Part shown: piece by piece, positions 7,584 through 46,410 of the stretch
Layout of the letters: every line of letters starts with the position of its first letter
How positions within the stretch are numbered: the stretch's first letter is position 1
Source: an uncultured Muribaculaceae bacterium
GTDB taxonomy: Bacteria > Bacillota_I > Bacilli_A > RF39 > UBA660
DNA: 49,791 bases
Assembly (NCBI GenBank): GCA_964465805.1
Contig: CAYXLG010000003.1
Coordinates: 1-49,791, forward strand
Reading direction: 5' to 3'
Notes under the pieces: generated by a model
Told to the model about the DNA's origin: nothing
What the model saw: the letters and a program-made list of their open reading frames with translations, nothing else
Database searches by the model: none
Program-made: the position numbers and the translations under genes

Positions 7584-8939
7584 ATGATGGAAATAAATAG
7601 TATATGGAATAATTTTTTAGAAAAAGTCCAAAAGAATCTAGCACCTATGTTATACGAAGCATGGTTTGCTGAAACTAAATTGATTTCATTAGATAATAAT
7701 AAAGCAACGGTGTTAGTTCCAATGCTAATTCATAAAAAACATTTGAAAGAAAATTATAATACTTTAATTGAAACTATATTTAATGAAGTAACTGGCTCTA
7801 ATTTTATTTTTGAATATTTAACAGATGAAGATATCGAAAAAATTAAAGATAAAGAAATTTTCTTATCAGATGAGGAAATCTCCGAACCGTTTCAATCAAA
7901 TTTGAATCCTAAATATTTATTTGAAAATTTTGTGGTTGGAGATAGTAATAAATTTGCAAAAACAACTGCTATAGCAGTTGCAGAAAAACCAGGTTTTATG
8001 TATAATCCTTTATTTATATATAGTAATAGTGGACTTGGTAAAACTCATTTAATGCATGCAATTGGAAATTATATTGTTCAAAACAGTAAGAAAAAAGTAT
8101 TATATGTTACCAGCGAACAATTTGTTAATGATTTTATCGAATTGTATAGAAAAAACAAAAATAATAATAATTTTAAAGAAGTAGAAAGGTTTAAAAAGAA
8201 GTACAGAGATGTTGATGTTTTAATGATTGATGATATACAATATCTAGAAATTGCTAACAAAACACAACAAGAATTTTTTAATACATTTAATGAACTCCAT
8301 ACTAATAATAAACAAATAATAATTTCTTCTGACAGATCCCCAGATGATTTAAAACAATTAGAAGACAGATTAAGAACTAGATTCACTTGGGGATTAATGG
8401 TAGATATTATGCCTCCTAATTTTGAACTTAGGCTTTCAATTATTGAGAAAAAAATTGAAGGGCATGCTTTAAATACTAATTTCCCACAAGATGTTAAAGA
8501 ATATATTGCAAGTAATTGTATTGGTGATATTAGAAAATTAGAAGGTGCAATTACCCGTGTAGTTGCATATGCCACGATGATGAACGGCTCTGATATAACA
8601 TTAGAGTTAGCTATTGAAGCTTTAAAAGATTATATAGGAAAATGTATGGTTTCAAAAAATAATATAGAGAAAGTACAACAATTAGTTGCAAATGCTTATA
8701 ATATAACTATTGAAGAGTTAAAAGGAAAAAGAAGAATTGCGGCAATTGCTGTTCCTAGGCAAGTAGCGATGTATATTTGTAGAACTGTATATAATGAACC
8801 TCTTACAAAAATCGGATTATTATTTGGTGGAAGGGATCATACCACTGTTATACATTCTGTCGATAAAATTAAAAAAGAATTAATTAATGACATTAATTTA
8901 GATAAAGAAATAAAAAAAATTATTAGAAATTTAAATTAA
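7584..8939 (+). CDS. dnaA: Chromosomal replication initiator protein DnaA
   Basis: 451 aa with Walker A GLGKTHL, the AAA+ region, and the C-terminal DnaA signature (GGRDHTTVIHS). Confidence 0.97.
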   Translation: MMEINSIWNNFLEKVQKNLAPMLYEAWFAETKLISLDNNKATVLVPMLIHKKHLKENYNTLIETIFNEVTGSNFIFEYLTDEDIEKIKDKEIFLSDEEISEPFQSNLNPKYLFENFVVGDSNKFAKTTAIAVAEKPGFMYNPLFIYSNSGLGKTHLMHAIGNYIVQNSKKKVLYVTSEQFVNDFIELYRKNKNNNNFKEVERFKKKYRDVDVLMIDDIQYLEIANKTQQEFFNTFNELHTNNKQIIISSDRSPDDLKQLEDRLRTRFTWGLMVDIMPPNFELRLSIIEKKIEGHALNTNFPQDVKEYIASNCIGDIRKLEGAITRVVAYATMMNGSDITLELAIEALKDYIGKCMVSKNNIEKVQQLVANAYNITIEELKGKRRIAAIAVPRQVAMYICRTVYNEPLTKIGLLFGGRDHTTVIHSVDKIKKELINDINLDKEIKKIIRNLN

Positions 8940-10249: not shown

Positions 10250-10378
10250 AATTGCTAAAAAAAACTTTAGACATAATAATGGTTATTTCAGACAAAAACA
10301 TACTAAAATGTAAAATTTTAATGTATTATGAAGGAAATTCGCAAACTATAGCGAATTATATTAGTAAGGAGGTGTAAA

Positions 10379-10828
10379 ATGGAAAAGTATGAGATTAGTC
10401 CTTCAACTATTGCAATTATTGCAATTGATGGTTATAAAAGTAAAATAATTGAAGATAATGATACTTTTATAGTTAATAGAACGACCCCAAAAATAATAGA
10501 TGACAGTTGTCGTTATTTTGGAAGTTCTTATTTAGGAAGATTTGAAGGGAGTAAAAATTTTTTGGGTGGTACTATATACAAATCACCAATTATTATTGAA
10601 GAGAGCCATGAAATTATTTTTTTACCTACAGGATCAGCACGTTCAAGTGATTGCTCGTGGATCTCTTTAAATAAGATTTCTCATTATAAGAAAAAAGACA
10701 ACCAAACAGAAATACATTTTAAAAACGGAACTTCTTTATTATTTCCGATGTCATATTCGTCATTTGAAAATCAGGTTTTACGAGCATCTAGATTAGAATC
10801 TATACTTAGACAAAGAAAATCTATATAA
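10379..10828 (+). CDS. comK: Competence transcription factor ComK family protein
   Basis: IIDDSCRYFGSSYLGR, FLPTGS...CSWIS and MSYSSFENQVLRAS align with recalled B. subtilis ComK segments (IVDRSCRFFGSSYAGR, FPTLS...CGWIS, ISYNSFENQVYRTA). A strong RBS, AAGGAGGTG, precedes the start. Confidence 0.88.
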   Translation: MEKYEISPSTIAIIAIDGYKSKIIEDNDTFIVNRTTPKIIDDSCRYFGSSYLGRFEGSKNFLGGTIYKSPIIIEESHEIIFLPTGSARSSDCSWISLNKISHYKKKDNQTEIHFKNGTSLLFPMSYSSFENQVLRASRLESILRQRKSI

Positions 10829-41625: not shown

Positions 41626-41702
41626 GGGTGATTAGCTCAGTTGGTTAGAGCACCTGCCTTACAAGCAGGGGGTCGTAAGTTCGAGTCTTACATCGCCCAC
41701 CA
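41626..41702 (+). tRNA. tRNA-Val (anticodon TAC)
   Basis: Acceptor GGGTGAT/ATCGCCC, anticodon loop CTTACAA, T-loop GTTCGAGTC, encoded CCA. Confidence 0.9.
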
Positions 41703-41703
41703 T

Positions 41704-41780
<77 letters not shown>

Positions 41781-41786
41781 TTAGTT

Positions 41787-41870
41787 GGAGGGATAGCGAA
41801 GTGGTCAAACGCGGCAGACTGTAAATCTGTTCCTTCGGGTTCGATGGTTCAAATCCATCTCCCTCCACCA
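41787..41870 (+). tRNA. tRNA-Tyr (anticodon GTA)
   Basis: Acceptor GGAGGGA/TCCCTCC, anticodon loop CTGTAAA, long variable arm, encoded CCA. Confidence 0.9.
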
Positions 41871-41884
41871 TTAATATTTGACCT

Positions 41885-41959
41885 TGCCTCGTAGCCAAGC
41901 GGTAAGGCACCACACTTTGACTGTGGCATGCGCTAGTTCGAATCTAGCCGAGGCAGCCA
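41885..41959 (+). tRNA. tRNA-Gln (anticodon TTG)
   Basis: Acceptor TGCCTCG/CGAGGCA, anticodon loop CTTTGAC, encoded CCA. Confidence 0.88.
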
Positions 41960-41966
41960 TTTTTAT

Positions 41967-42042
41967 GTCCCGTTAGCTCAGTCGGTAGAGCATTTGACTT
42001 TTAATCAAAGGGTCACAAGTTCGATTCTTGTACGGGACACCA
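41967..42042 (+). tRNA. tRNA-Lys (anticodon TTT)
   Basis: Acceptor GTCCCGT/ACGGGAC, anticodon loop CTTTTAA, encoded CCA. Confidence 0.9.
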
Positions 42043-42051
42043 TTCTTTTTT

Positions 42052-42140
42052 GCCTGAGTGGCGGAACAGGTAGACGCACAGGACTTAAAATCCTGGGAGA
42101 CTCAAATCTCGTGCCGGTTCAATTCCGGCCTTAGGCACCA
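42052..42140 (+). tRNA. tRNA-Leu (anticodon TAA)
   Basis: Acceptor GCCTGAG/CTTAGGC, anticodon loop CTTAAAA, long variable arm, encoded CCA. Confidence 0.9.
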
Positions 42141-42169
42141 TTATAATTTTTAGATTAAATCTATATTAT

Positions 42170-42262
42170 GGAGAAATACCCAAGTCTGGTTGAAGGGGCC
42201 GGTCTTGAAAACCGGGAGGTCGGTAATACGGCGCGGGGGTTCGAATCCCTCTTTCTCCGCCA
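42170..42262 (+). tRNA. tRNA-Ser (anticodon TGA)
   Basis: Acceptor GGAGAAA/TTTCTCC, anticodon loop CTTGAAA, long variable arm, encoded CCA. Confidence 0.9.
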
Positions 42263-42280
42263 TAAAGATTTAATCAATAT

Positions 42281-42357
<77 letters not shown>

Positions 42358-42362
42358 TATTT

Positions 42363-42438
42363 GGTCCCGTGGTGTAGCGGTTAACATGTCTGCCTGTCAC
42401 GCAGAAGATCGCGAGTTCAATTCTCGTCGGGACCGCCA
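42363..42438 (+). tRNA. tRNA-Asp (anticodon GTC)
   Basis: Acceptor GGTCCCG/CGGGACC, anticodon loop CTGTCAC, encoded CCA. Confidence 0.9.
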
Positions 42439-42443
42439 TTGTT

Positions 42444-42519
<76 letters not shown>

Positions 42520-42541
42520 TTTTAAATATAAGATTTAATTT

Positions 42542-42618
42542 GCGCCCGTAGATCAATTGGATAGATCGTTTGACTACGGATCAAAAGGTTATGGGTTCGA
42601 CTCCTATCGGGCGCGCCA
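42542..42618 (+). tRNA. tRNA-Arg (anticodon ACG)
   Basis: Acceptor GCGCCCG/CGGGCGC, anticodon loop CTACGGA, encoded CCA. Confidence 0.9.
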
Positions 42619-42621
42619 TAC

Positions 42622-42698
42622 CGGGAAATAGCACAACTTGGTAGTGCACTTGGTTTGGGACCAAGGGGTTGCAGGTTCAAATCCTGTTTTCCCGACCA
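42622..42698 (+). tRNA. tRNA-Pro (anticodon TGG)
   Basis: Acceptor CGGGAAA/TTTCCCG, anticodon loop TTTGGGA, encoded CCA. Confidence 0.9.
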
Positions 42699-42701
42699 TC
42701 T

Positions 42702-42778
42702 GGGGAATTAGCTCAGTTGGCTAGAGCACCTGCCTTGCACGCAGGGGGTCAAGGGTTCAAGTCCCTTATTCTCCACCA
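42702..42778 (+). tRNA. tRNA-Ala (anticodon TGC)
   Basis: Acceptor GGGGAAT/ATTCTCC with the G3:U70 identity pair, anticodon loop CTTGCAC, encoded CCA. Confidence 0.9.
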
Positions 42779-42882: not shown

Positions 42883-42910
42883 TTGACAGATGATAAAAAA
42901 TGTGTATAAT
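42883..42910 (+). promoter_or_regulatory. Near-consensus SigA promoter (TTGACA-16-TATAAT) of the 101-aa gene
   Basis: Hexamers at 42883-42888 and 42905-42910, read directly. Confidence 0.65.
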
Positions 42911-42938
42911 AAAAGTACTTTAAAGGGGGAATGTATAT

Positions 42939-43244
42939 ATGGCTGATATTCATATAAGTATGAAATTAAGTGATATTCTTAGGTCATTATGGAATGTCAA
43001 TGATAATCTTAAAAATTTAAATAGTAATCTTAAAAAAAATGATGGATCAGAAAAAGTTATCTTAGAATCTTTAAGTGAAGTGTTAAAATCAAATCAAAGA
43101 ATTGAAGAATTACTTATTGAACAAGTAGAATTAAAAAAATACGAACTAGGATTGCCAAGTAAAATTAATGGAATTTATAATAAAAACCGTTCAAATTTAG
43201 ATACAAATCATTCAAAAGGTAGAGTTATAAAAGGAAAAATATAA
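42939..43244 (+). CDS. Hypothetical 101-aa hydrophilic, predicted helical protein (no recognised family)
   Basis: ORF with a GGGGGA RBS, its own strong promoter and its own terminator. It has no TM segment or signal peptide. The C-terminus is Lys/Asn rich. Confidence 0.6.
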   Translation: MADIHISMKLSDILRSLWNVNDNLKNLNSNLKKNDGSEKVILESLSEVLKSNQRIEELLIEQVELKKYELGLPSKINGIYNKNRSNLDTNHSKGRVIKGKI

Positions 43245-43271
43245 AAAATCAGATAATTATCTGATTTTTTT
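43245..43271 (+). terminator. Intrinsic terminator (perfect palindrome aaaaatcagataattatctgattttt)
   Basis: Read directly. It lies immediately after the stop at 43244. Confidence 0.8.
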
Positions 43272-43377
43272 AATGATGTTAAATATAAATAATTTATATC
43301 AAAAATGGTTGCAATTTTTGCCGGACTATGTTAGCATAAAGTTAGTTTACGAGAAGCAAACATATAGAGGTGATGTA

Positions 43378-44085
43378 GTGATTAATTTTGTTTTATGTGA
43401 TGATAATAAGGAAATACTTGATAAAGTTAGTAATATTATTGATGAAGAAATGATGAAAAATCAAATAGTTTATAAAAAACATATGTTCAAAGACTATGAT
43501 TCCAAATTCATAAAATTAGTTAAGTCAAAATTATCTTGCCGAATATATATATTAGATATTGAAACGCCTAGCGCTTCTGGAATTGATATTGCTAGAATTA
43601 TCAGGGAAAAGGATGTGGAAAGTGTTATAATTTTTTTAACATCTCATGATGAACTTGGTTATACAGTTTTAAAAAATGAATTTATGTTTTTATCATTTAT
43701 TAACAAGTATGATAACTATCAAGATAACTTACGTAAGTCAATAAGAAAAGCGTTAGAAATTCTTGGTAAGAAACGAATTATTAGATTTGAAGATAGGGGA
43801 GCAATATACACAATACCAATTAATGATATTTTATATATTATTCGTGATAATATTGAGAGAAAAGTTGTTATAACCACAGATTATTCAAAATACAGCGTTA
43901 ATAAATCTTTAACTGAGATGTTAGAGTTATTAGGTGATGTTTTTAAACAAACACATCGTTCGTGTATTGTTAACATTAATCGAATAACAATTGTAAATGC
44001 TTCTAAAAGAAAAATTGTTTTTGATACTGGAGTAGAAATTGACTGGTTAAGTGCAAAATATAAAAACGAGGTAATTTTAAAATGA
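43378..44085 (+). CDS. agrA: LytTR-family response regulator (AgrA-like)
   Basis: Receiver domain (VLCDDN...YILDIETPSASGIDIA) plus a C-terminal LytTR domain (ILYI...VVITTD...HRSCIVNINRI). A GTG start at 43378 after AGAGGTGA gives 235 aa. The track start at 43273 abuts the upstream terminator and adds a non-receiver extension. Confidence 0.85.
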   Translation: MINFVLCDDNKEILDKVSNIIDEEMMKNQIVYKKHMFKDYDSKFIKLVKSKLSCRIYILDIETPSASGIDIARIIREKDVESVIIFLTSHDELGYTVLKNEFMFLSFINKYDNYQDNLRKSIRKALEILGKKRIIRFEDRGAIYTIPINDILYIIRDNIERKVVITTDYSKYSVNKSLTEMLELLGDVFKQTHRSCIVNINRITIVNASKRKIVFDTGVEIDWLSAKYKNEVILK

Positions 44086-45374
44086 TATTACTTATTAATA
44101 GTTTTATTTTTTCTCTAGCTTGCTTTTATGTTTCTTCTAAGATTTTTAAATTTAAAATAGATTATAAAAAAAAAGATTATTGGATTGTTGTATTTATTAA
44201 TACACTATTAATAACATTATCGTTTGTTATTACAACACACTTTTTAAGAGTTGTTTTTAATTATATTATTTTATTGATTTTAAACAAATATTACTTTAAC
44301 AAACCCTTTTTCGAATTAATGCTAGGTAGTTTTTTTACATTTGTAGTAATAACTGTTTCTGAAATATTTATGGCAATTATGTTAGTTAGTGTTTTCAAAA
44401 TAGAAATTACACAGTTATCAGAATCATATATTGGACAGTTTTATATAAATATTATTATATCAATTATTATGGTGTTGATTGTTAATGTACGTGAATCAGG
44501 CCGTTTTTTTAAAATTTTCTCCGATAATGTTAAAACAAAAGGACTTGAAGGAATTGCACCTTTAGTACTAATTATTATAGTTATATATGCTGCTCTTTTA
44601 TATTATATATATTATCAAATAAACGGAATTACAGTAATGATTTTAAGTGTTATTCTTATTACTATAATATGTGTTTTATTAATGACTGTTTTGAAAGAAA
44701 AAAATTATAGTGTTAACCTTAAAAAGGAATATGAGGAGTTAATTAGTAATTTAAATGAGTATGAAAAAGTACTGGAAAAGTACCGATTAACAAATCACGA
44801 GAACATTAATAATTTTATTATTATAAAAGGAATGCTAGAAAAAAATGAAAGCGATGTTGTAAAACAAATTGATGAAATTATTTGTAATAAGCAACAAGAT
44901 GATAATGAAATATTATTTAAGACAAAAAAATTGCCTACTGGTGGTCTCCAAGGTCTTGTTTATCAAAAAATGTTAATTATGAAAGAAAAAAATATTATAT
45001 GTAATTTAGAAATTAGTAAACATATTAATGCGAAAAAAATGAAAACATTAGAATCTGAGTTAAATAAAAAAATATGCACTATTGTGGGTATTTTTATTGA
45101 CAATGCTATTGAAGCTGTTGTTGACTTGAATAAAAAAAATGTTGGATTATATCTATATATGGAAAATAATGAATTGTGTTTTTCTATTTCAAATAATTTT
45201 TCTGGTATTATTAATTTAGATAAAATAGATAATATTGGATATTCAAGTAAAGGCAAAGGTAGGGGTTATGGCTTAGGTTTAGTAAAAAAAATAGTTGATA
45301 AGGATGAAAGGATAATAATTAAACGGGAAATTATTAGAGATTCATTTAAACAAATAATAAAAATAAAAATGTAG
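44082..45374 (+). CDS. agrC: AgrC-type (HPK10) membrane sensor histidine kinase
   Basis: About 6 N-terminal TM helices, H-box region RLTNHENINNF, N-box IFIDNAIEA and G-box GKGRGYGLGL. Its start overlaps the agrA stop by 4 nt (ATGA). Confidence 0.85.
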   Translation: MILLINSFIFSLACFYVSSKIFKFKIDYKKKDYWIVVFINTLLITLSFVITTHFLRVVFNYIILLILNKYYFNKPFFELMLGSFFTFVVITVSEIFMAIMLVSVFKIEITQLSESYIGQFYINIIISIIMVLIVNVRESGRFFKIFSDNVKTKGLEGIAPLVLIIIVIYAALLYYIYYQINGITVMILSVILITIICVLLMTVLKEKNYSVNLKKEYEELISNLNEYEKVLEKYRLTNHENINNFIIIKGMLEKNESDVVKQIDEIICNKQQDDNEILFKTKKLPTGGLQGLVYQKMLIMKEKNIICNLEISKHINAKKMKTLESELNKKICTIVGIFIDNAIEAVVDLNKKNVGLYLYMENNELCFSISNNFSGIINLDKIDNIGYSSKGKGRGYGLGLVKKIVDKDERIIIKREIIRDSFKQIIKIKM

Positions 45375-45389
45375 AATTTCTACATTTTT
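45365..45389. terminator. Bidirectional terminator shared by convergent agrC and agrD
   Basis: aaaaatgtaga-att-tctacattttt hairpin overlapping both stop codons. Confidence 0.7.
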
Positions 45390-45510
45390 ATTTTATTAAG
45401 TTTTCTGGCATTTCTGGTTCATCTAACCAAAGAAACATACATGCTGTACTAAAAGAATTTGCAGAAGCAAAGCCAATTAGACTCAAAACAAAAGCACCTA
45501 TTTTATTCAT
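45388..45510 (-). CDS. agrD: AgrD-type autoinducing-peptide precursor (40 aa), unannotated
   Basis: Codon-by-codon hand translation gives MNKIGAFVLSLIGFASANSFSTACMFLWLDEPEMPENLIK. GGAGG lies 5 nt upstream, and the start is 13 nt after the agrB stop. Layout is an amphipathic leader, Cys+4, then an acidic EP..P tail. Confidence 0.8.
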   Translation of the reverse strand: MNKIGAFVLSLIGFASANSFSTACMFLWLDEPEMPENLIK

Positions 45511-45523
45511 GTTAACCTCCTTT

Positions 45524-46114
45524 TTAATATAAATAATTATTATATGGTTGTTTAAATAAATAATAGCTAAGTGGGCTAATTAAGAAAGATTGGATAGTAA
45601 TTGCGCTAAATATAGCATTACTTATAAAATTATCATTAGTAGTAATTAAAATAAGCCCATATATAGCAATAATTAAAATGGAAATAAATTTATATATCAT
45701 TCTTCTTTTTAGACTAATAATAGGTCTTTTTTTTGTATCCGCAGGAGCACACTTTATAAAGATTAAAGTGCATATAGAAAATATAATGATTTTGGTCAGT
45801 TTTGAAATTGTTACAATGGTGCATAAATAAGCTGTACCAATAAAAATAGAGGCAGAAAGTATTAAACAACTTAAACTATTATTAGCGTGCGATCCAAAGG
45901 AAAACATTCTCAGAAAGTTATATAATATAACAATTATTAATAATTGTTTTAAAATGTTTAAAAGAAAAGCAATTATGAATATTATAACAGTTTTGGTAAC
46001 TGATATATAAATGCCTTCTAATCCATATCTTATTGTTTTTAGCTGTAGTTCCGAATACTCAGGATAAGATTTATTAATTAATTTTATTAAACTATCTAAC
46101 ACATATTTTTTCAT
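45524..46114 (-). CDS. agrB: AgrB-family membrane peptidase that processes the AIP precursor
   Basis: 196 aa and polytopic. FLRMFSFGSHANNSLSCLILS matches the AgrB catalytic His/Cys region (LR.fsGG.H......C). Basic loop KKRP. Confidence 0.85.
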   Translation of the reverse strand: MKKYVLDSLIKLINKSYPEYSELQLKTIRYGLEGIYISVTKTVIIFIIAFLLNILKQLLIIVILYNFLRMFSFGSHANNSLSCLILSASIFIGTAYLCTIVTISKLTKIIIFSICTLIFIKCAPADTKKRPIISLKRRMIYKFISILIIAIYGLILITTNDNFISNAIFSAITIQSFLISPLSYYLFKQPYNNYLY

Positions 46115-46142
46115 TACTAAATCACACCTTTATTTATTATAT

Positions 46143-46176
46143 AATGTGTTTAATTTTTTTTTAAGAATGTGTTTAA
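46143..46176 (-). promoter_or_regulatory. Two identical 11-bp direct repeats with a 12-bp spacer upstream of agrB; candidate LytTR (AgrA) binding site
   Basis: AATGTGTTTAA at 46143-46153 and 46166-46176 on the plus strand (TTAAACACATT in the agrB direction). The proximal copy abuts a TATAAT on the minus strand. Confidence 0.5.
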
Positions 46177-46410
46177 AAAAACTGTTTTGATGTCTGAAAT
46201 TACAAAAAACATCTTTTTTGATTAAAAAAATATATAATAGACGTTAAAAGACATACTTTAGACCATTTAATAAAAATTTATAATAAAACATAGTAGAATA
46301 TTTTTATTGCAAATAGAAAATGTCGAAATTTGACTTTCTTATTTTATTGATTATTATACCATTAATGAGGTATATTTGAATTGTAAGGAAACTAGAAGGG
46401 AGAGGTATTT

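Follow-up and report, generated by a model that had tools for sequence, protein, structure and literature searches.

The 40-codon open reading frame (ORF) on the minus strand of contig CAYXLG010000003.1, positions 45388..45510, is, judged by its sequence and that of its relatives, a genuine gene for a signalling-peptide precursor of the AgrD family. The window is in the following the whole stretch of 49,791 nt that was analysed, and numbers such as L007, L008 or L087 are the labels of the related loci and contigs with which it was compared. The host belongs to an uncultured, low-GC (about 26%) lineage of the Bacillota, for which the public records say 'Bacilli' or 'Mollicutes bacterium'. It is very probable that the ORF represents the agrD of a complete agr-type quorum-sensing locus, an explanation to which less certain steps are attached, namely the formation of the peptide ring, its sensing and the operators at the agrBD and comK promoters. 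The most interesting lead is a putative second operator upstream of comK, which lies outside the segment that an earlier interpretation of the bare letters (the sequence-only reading) had singled out. The gene and its parts are as follows.

45388..45510, minus strand: agrD, 40 codons plus stop with an ATG start, product MNKIGAFVLSLIGFASANSFSTACMFLWLDEPEMPENLIK
45510..45442, minus strand: leader of AgrD, residues 1-23
45441..45424, minus strand: predicted core of AgrD, C24-L29 (CMFLWL)
45423..45391, minus strand: AgrB recognition tail of AgrD, D30-K40 (DEPEMPENLIK)
45516..45520, minus strand: Shine-Dalgarno motif GGAGG, followed by 5 nt (TTAAC) and the ATG of agrD

The agrD gene and its locus

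The assignment to AgrD is supported by profile, layout and conservation. The peptide matches the NCBIfam profile TIGR04223 (AgrD family cyclic lactone autoinducer peptide) with 30.0 bits against a curated cut-off of 19 (E=4.2e-07), and the alignment joins AgrD residues 6-40 to profile positions 8-38 of 38. It also shows the layout of the family, which comprises a hydrophobic or amphipathic leader (the hydrophobic segment covers residues 1-15), a lone C24, a core of variable, hydrophobic residues and an acidic tail with Pro. An AgrB-alignment scan of species-representative genomes, one per species, yielded 80 related agrB loci, and a homologous small ORF is situated directly downstream of agrB in 78 of them. 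Between the window and L008, codons 20-40 of agrD differ by four synonymous and no non-synonymous changes, and the codon comparison of L013 with L014 gave five and none, respectively. Hence, the ORF stands far beyond chance because of its TIGR04223 score, its presence in relatives, the exclusively synonymous change and the fact that the gene has already been called in relatives.

The competing view regards the ORF as an untranslated chance frame in the AT-rich DNA between convergent genes. Indeed, ORFs of at least 25 aa are common by chance in this region, where dozens of them arise, and an ORF of 40 codons is unremarkable in DNA with 26% GC. In addition, the Pfam model PF05931 for staphylococcal AgrD scored the peptide at 15.3 bits, below its gathering threshold of 22.7, which speaks against the assignment; this model was built from staphylococcal sequences, and weak precomputed matches to PF05931 exist in relatives. 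The search with an AgrD profile hidden Markov model, which the sequence-only reading had named as a check, was thus passed with TIGR04223 and failed with the Pfam model. However, a chance frame is difficult to reconcile with a strong ribosome-binding site (RBS) at the correct distance, with a TIGR04223 score above the curated cut-off, with homologous peptides after agrB that keep invariant C, D, E and P columns, with a conserved half that shows synonymous codon changes only, and with a gene that is called and named in relatives. The comparative data have effectively refuted this possibility, and we regard it as extremely improbable. Accordingly, the core of the sequence-only reading has held, i.e. 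the minus-strand frame of 40 codons after agrB, for which ORF and translation agree, the GGAGG motif 5 nt before a start codon that begins 13 nt past the agrB stop on the same strand, and the nature of the product as an AgrD-type precursor, for which synteny also argues.

Different from this, the statements that the gene is unannotated and that its peptide looks new did not survive. A public protein collection contains the exact 40-mer, drawn from NCBI and Logan, and in SRR8925798 an independent assembly gave a 3.7-kb contig (L096) that is identical base for base and has agrD called. Moreover, three accessions of relatives, MDD2180858.1, MDD4282213.1 and MDD4718212.1, carry the name 'cyclic lactone autoinducer peptide [Bacilli bacterium]'. 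These peptides are 80% identical to the window AgrD over 40 residues, including an identical C-terminal half FSTACMFLWLDEPEMPENLIK, and share with it the synteny secA-hpf-csp / agrBD / histidine kinase-response regulator, but they differ by eight substitutions in the leader, by an agrD that overlaps agrB by 8 nt instead of following it after a 13-nt gap, and by an AgrB that is just 61% identical to that of the window. The literature search found no paper that contains 'CMFLW' and no paper that joins RF39/RFN20 with agr. The agrD gene is therefore not new, it is an ordinary member of a known family that is already public under the correct name. Taken alone, it enlarges by one member a family that is already recognised by annotation pipelines, and the practical gain is small.

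The other components of the locus are the following.

45524..46114, minus strand: agrB, 196-aa membrane cysteine peptidase/cyclase (PF04647, E=1.2e-30)
44082..45374, plus strand: AgrC-like sensor histidine kinase, 430 aa (PF14501, GHKL ATPase, C-terminal, E=9e-10)
43378..44085, plus strand: AgrA-like LytTR response regulator (PF04397, E=1.3e-14; PF00072, 31 bits; NF046049, E=3e-10)
45355..45398, no strand assigned: AT-rich hairpin of 44 nt in which the convergent genes for AgrD and the kinase both end

Three AgrB residues, R69, H76 and C83, do not vary among 20 homologues and, shifted by one position, match R70, H77 and C84 of the S. aureus enzyme (PMC10196373). The kinase and the regulator show weak full-length matches to AgrC (NF046015) and AgrA (NF046049), respectively. 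About seven hydrophobic segments occur within residues 1-201 of the kinase, and H239 is found in the H-box RLTNHENINNF, while the regulator contains D8/D9 and a D60 in ILDIETP. In the favoured model, the seven-helix sensor domain of the AgrC-like kinase would sense the peptide and the H239 kinase would phosphorylate D60 of the regulator. The mechanical ORF of the regulator starts at 43273, but its start is likely the GTG at 43378 after AGAGGTGA, which gives 235 aa, compared with 233 aa in relatives; its 3' end overlaps the kinase start by 4 nt.

Regulator and kinase form, in this order, a two-gene plus-strand operon on which agrB-agrD converge from the minus strand. The 13 nt that separate the stop codons of agrD and the convergent kinase gene fall within the AT-rich hairpin, for which RNA folding predicts -15.1 kcal/mol (z = -5.8; none of 200 shuffles was as stable), and it probably acts as a bidirectional intrinsic terminator. 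A consensus terminator scan between agrD and the kinase gene, which needs at least three G-C pairs, gave no match. Next to the agr locus of the window, csp, hpf and the start of secA are found on one side and a 101-aa ORF and 13 tRNA genes on the other side, and related metagenome-assembled genomes (MAGs) display the syntenic arrangement secA, hpf, csp / agrBD / histidine kinase-response regulator / tRNA cluster / S1, NifU, YutH.

Some further observations were made around the locus. The 13 tRNA genes (41626..42778, plus strand), directly upstream of the two-component operon, are those for Val, Thr, Tyr, Gln, Lys, Leu, Ser, Met, Asp, Phe, Arg, Pro and Ala. The 101-aa ORF (42939..43244, plus strand), directly upstream of the regulator gene, is preceded by a perfect TTGACA-16-TATAAT promoter and by GGGGG as RBS, and its stop is followed directly by a perfect palindrome of 14+14 nt (region 42883..43270, plus strand). 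It showed no Pfam or NCBIfam match, and among the related loci fetched a homologue (42% identity) occurs at the same position in L074 only. The GC skew flips its sign at about 5-10 kb, and dnaA (7584..8939) and dnaN come next. The window hence spans the replication origin, as marked by dnaA, dnaN, recF and the switch in GC skew, and the agr locus is situated about 38 kb away from it. The agr locus is also carried by MAGs that are labelled Muribaculaceae or Bacteroidaceae (L010, L018, L029, L042, L060, L074, L075, L081 and L086); on such low-GC contigs of the Bacillota type these labels look like binning or labelling errors.

Ring size and maturation of the peptide

The sequence-only reading had predicted a five-residue thiolactone, C-M-F-L-W. 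When 79 AgrD peptides (those of the 78 related loci and that of the window) were aligned on the Cys, exactly five residues, not four, separated it from a near-invariant D-E-P in 76 of them. Counted from the Cys, which corresponds to C24 and is invariant across the family, positions +1 to +5 are hypervariable and hydrophobic (entropy 2.35-3.02 bits), while positions -3, -1, +6 (D), +7 (E), +8 (P), +9 (E) and +11 (P) are conserved with 0-0.9 bits. Position +6 is D in 73/76 peptides (0.24 bits) and +7 is E in 76/76, followed by P at +8 (68/76), E at +9 (63/76) and P at +11 (66/76). The window peptide reads C24-MFLWL-D30-E31-P32-E33-M34-P35-E36-N37-L38 in this register. The boundary between core and tail is placed after +5, because this position is as variable as +1 to +4 and +6 is a near-invariant Asp. 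A side observation in the same alignment is a second Cys at +10 of the follower (DEPECPKSLIK) in 33/76 precursors, where the window has Met34.

Characterised systems permit this boundary to be translated into a cleavage site. In S. aureus AgrD the ring comprises C28-M32, and D33 and E34 are essential for cleavage (PMC10196373). The ring of C. thermocellum AgrD extends from S25 to F29, then Y30 follows, and the conserved Pro is P35. The C. acetobutylicum precursor contains ...GKCVLVTLYEPKMPEELL (supplement of PMC10301443), i.e. CVLVTL/YEPKMP with the slash marking the cut, and its autoinducing peptide (AIP) [CVLVTL] has experimentally a six-membered ring and no tail (PMC12312760, PMC8251862). 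As a rule from these three systems, the conserved Pro is the sixth residue after the AgrB cut and the conserved Glu, where present, the second. The precursor tails of L. plantarum, L. monocytogenes and C. perfringens fit the sixth-residue Pro rule as well; they are not used as evidence here. With P35 as the sixth residue after the cut, the predicted cut falls between L29 and D30 and the predicted ring is CMFLWL. By this analogy, AgrB would cut at this bond and the carbonyl of L29 would be joined to the thiol of Cys24, and it is fairly likely that the resulting macrocycle is the six-residue C-M-F-L-W-L instead of CMFLW; the ring of the sequence-only reading is hence probably wrong.

A cut after W28, which would give the five-residue thiolactone carrying A, TA or STA as a short exocyclic tail, has some attraction, because five-residue rings clearly predominate in the table of characterised AIPs in PMC12312760, Trp likewise ends the ring [CVGIW] of L. 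plantarum (PMC12312760), and W is the most frequent residue at +4 in the family (23/76). However, the conserved Glu and Pro would then be third and seventh after the cut, while they are second and sixth in the systems checked, and the first follower residue would be the variable +5 with 2.35 bits instead of the +6 Asp with 0.24 bits. Furthermore, C. acetobutylicum, with the same C-x5-xEP register, makes a six-membered ring. We consider the five-residue ring unlikely on these grounds. The six-residue ring is in turn weakened by two points. Three of the 79 peptides have six residues before DEP, and it might be that ring size varies or that AgrB counts from the Cys; moreover, the estimate rests on the analogy of registers.

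The comparison with known systems places the peptide closest to C. acetobutylicum. AgrD of this species (CA_C0079, AIP [CVLVTL], R6T0) shares the Cys, five variable hydrophobic residues and x-E-P-x-M-P-E-x-L with the window peptide, as can be seen in the alignment of CVLVTL/YEPKMPEEL with CMFLWL/DEPEMPENL, and in both cases agrBD and agrCA are separate transcription units. In the window, as in C. acetobutylicum, five core residues precede x-E-P and the conserved Pro is sixth after the predicted cut. The leaders are unrelated, with 32 residues before the Cys in C. acetobutylicum and 23 in the window, the P1' residue is Tyr there and Asp in the window, the window operons converge on a shared hairpin, and the window host is an uncultured low-GC Bacilli/'Mollicutes' lineage and not a Clostridium. 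Beside the window agr cluster a homologue of the LanM-like CA_C0082 is absent, and no large ORF was found nearby. Judging from these sequence features, the window AgrD would belong to the six-ring subclass typified by C. acetobutylicum, without the LanM-like neighbour.

With S. aureus, the window shares the same four components AgrD, AgrB, AgrC and AgrA, the catalytic Arg, His and Cys of AgrB, a D-E directly after the predicted cut corresponding to the essential pair D33/E34, the His at 239 of the kinase, a LytTR-type regulator and a direct-repeat operator upstream of the agrBD promoter. In contrast, the gene order is not agrBDCA, an RNAIII-like divergent transcript is not evident at the window locus, five residues instead of the four of S. 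aureus separate the Cys from D-E in the window as in the bulk of the family, and the window product is probably tail-less. The clostridial cyclic AIPs (e.g. Rc-AIP1, cyclo-CWFWSY) resemble the predicted window product in being six-residue, Cys-first, hydrophobic and Trp-rich macrocycles, and the small residue before the Cys makes a tail-less product and an S-to-N acyl shift plausible also here. Their chemistry was measured, whereas the window peptide is known from its sequence.

The N-terminal side of the ring points to the same type of product. Position -3 is S or T in 74/76 peptides and -1 is A or G in 73/76 (S and A, respectively, in the window), and because small residues are kept at both positions, a type I signal-peptidase site directly before Cys24 fits. 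For C. thermocellum, LC-MS confirmed a SignalP-predicted cleavage immediately in front of the ring residue. The clostridial AIPs that Molloy et al. detected were all tail-less and had undergone an S-to-N acyl shift to homodetic cyclopeptides (PMC8251862), and the half-life of a clostridial AIP thiolactone is about 5 min (PMC8251862). By analogy, the leader may be removed right before Cys24, giving a tail-less thiolactone whose rearrangement would produce the lactam cyclo(CMFLWL) and free the thiol. We give this course of events roughly an even chance, which makes the tail-less lactam the single most likely product. An A-S-A/N site at residues 15-17, which could give the six-residue tail NSFSTA, argues against it. 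As a site for the whole family A-S-A/N was rejected: the Ala at -7 is conserved, yet the corresponding -3 residue (position -9) is not small.

The predicted ring CMFLWL is common to the window, L008, L013 and L014, in which AgrB is 51-61% identical to that of the window, and the closest relative L007 (AgrB 67-68% identical) carries CVILWL. Altogether, 73 different cores between C and DEP were counted among the 79 precursors. Pherotypes are hence very diverse, and yet some of them occur in more than one species. Among the agr components, the regulator is the best conserved (72-83% identity); the sensor domain of the kinase reaches 44-50%. The notion that sensor-domain identity tracks the ring and not the phylogeny was dropped, since the effect is small (48-50.5% with the same ring versus 44.5% in L007), and we do not rely on it.

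Putative operators at the agrBD and comK promoters

Two promoter regions of the window, those of agrBD and of comK, contain closely similar direct repeats.

46170..46199, minus strand: direct repeats TTTCAGACA-N12-TTTTAAACA, two 9-bp copies of TTTnRGACA, 5 bp upstream of the agrBD -35
46136..46164, minus strand: candidate agrBD promoter TTAAAA-17-TATAAT
10379..10828, plus strand: comK, competence transcription factor (PF06338, E=1.3e-41), between dnaN and recF
10265..10294, plus strand: putative second operator CTTTAGACA-N12-TTTCAGACA upstream of comK, 6 bp before a weak -35, with TATTAT as -10

LytTR operators consist of 9-bp direct repeats with a 12-bp spacer just upstream of the -35 (PMC6193735). 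By analogy with them, the repeats at 46170..46199 represent a putative binding site of the LytTR regulator, which could serve autoinduction. They are the only zero-mismatch match to TTTNRRACA-N12-TTTNRRACA in the window, and the same repeat pair with 21-bp periodicity occurs at -84..-88 from the agrB ATG in L007, L009, L013, L014 and L042. It is rather likely that the regulator would bind the TTTnRGACA repeats, which are separated by 12 bp and stand 5-6 bp ahead of a weak -35, and thereby mediate the autoinduction of agrBD. Some findings count against this model. The binding protein is deduced by analogy, the looser pattern with two mismatches occurs six times in the window against 4.3 expected and is hence not enriched, and simple activation does not explain a third copy of the repeat between -35 and -10. 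This third copy, TTAAACACATT (46143..46153, minus strand), is situated inside the agrBD spacer, 23 bp from the second copy and identical to it, and it may permit repression at high regulator levels or represent a recent duplication. Two exact copies of TTAAACACATT at 23-bp spacing were rejected as the conserved unit, because the pair kept in relatives has a distance of 21 bp and involves the upstream TTTCAGACA.

The site upstream of comK was evaluated with a position matrix that was derived from the agrB-side half-sites only and with which both strands of the window were scanned for pairs 20-22 bp apart. The agrBD promoter ranked first, by construction, and 10265..10294 came second. Only three out of 1168 tiles of 170 nt reached the level of the comK site, two overlapping ones at agrB and one at comK. 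The position of comK between dnaN and recF, beside the replication origin, is kept in nine relatives (L087-L095), and a high-scoring pair at exactly 21 bp is found at -114 to -121 in 6/9 comK upstream regions, the window included. The comK-side pairs scored 16.8-28.3, values that none of 1000 shuffles reached, and the pair is conserved in L088, L089, L091, L094 and L095. In the most distant genome, L093, TTCGACA occurs twice upstream of comK and matches the half-site of its own agrB promoter. Half-sites and even spacers co-vary within genomes, as illustrated by JAQWBL with TTTGAGACAcatattcggccaTTTCGGACA upstream of agrB and TTTGAGACAcatatttgggcaTTTGGGACA upstream of comK. The comK-side repeats are weaker in L087 and absent in L092, which counts against the comK step.

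With the same operator at the comK promoter, the agr regulator would drive comK directly and couple cell density to competence, for which we see the chances as evenly balanced. The wider proposal that the agr peptide is wired to competence, with the regulator acting on the agrBD and comK operators and cyclo-CMFLWL serving as a competence pheromone, is somewhat more tentative and falls slightly short of an even chance. No paper that links AgrA-type regulators directly to comK was found in the literature search.

The binding of another factor to the TTTnRGACA repeats has to be considered in this regard, either ComK itself or a LytTR protein encoded elsewhere, for example with ComK activating agrBD. 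ComK autoregulates its own promoter in B. subtilis, which provides a precedent. In addition, the kinase-regulator operon is devoid of such repeats and is situated behind the perfect TTGACA-16-TATAAT consensus promoter and the 101-aa ORF. However, ComK boxes are AAAA-N5-TTTT dyads, which the repeats do not resemble, and no LytTR regulator besides that of the agr locus was seen in the window. Moreover, the half-site variants co-vary between both promoters within a genome, and the regulator is the conserved component mentioned above. Finally, the arrangement as 9-bp direct repeats 12 bp apart, placed 5-6 bp ahead of a weak -35, is the signature of LytTR operators (PMC6193735). Collectively, these features make another binding factor rather improbable, and the agr regulator remains our preferred candidate for both sites.

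A second element was noticed in the 5' leader of comK. The inverted repeat AATTCGC-N8-GCGAATT (10336..10357, plus strand) is located just upstream of the RBS, and its AATTCG/CGAATT arms are kept in 8/9 genomes including L092, degraded in L091 and absent in L093. It could form an RNA hairpin or be the operator of a dimeric repressor.

Implications for the lineage

The register of the precursors provides a testable rule, by which one residue would stand between the AgrB cut and the invariant Glu, and the conserved Pro would be the sixth residue after the cut. If the rule applies, six-membered rings should predominate in this lineage from gut, digester and environmental sources; experimental proof of such rings has so far come from a few clostridia only. 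The point is of relevance for the synthesis of AIPs predicted from metagenomes, because a five-residue guess would yield an inactive compound. If the peptide acts as a competence pheromone, the presence of one predicted ring in several species would permit cross-species signalling. Finally, the operator that agrBD and comK appear to share leads to the hypothesis that quorum sensing may control DNA uptake in this uncultured group with reduced genomes.

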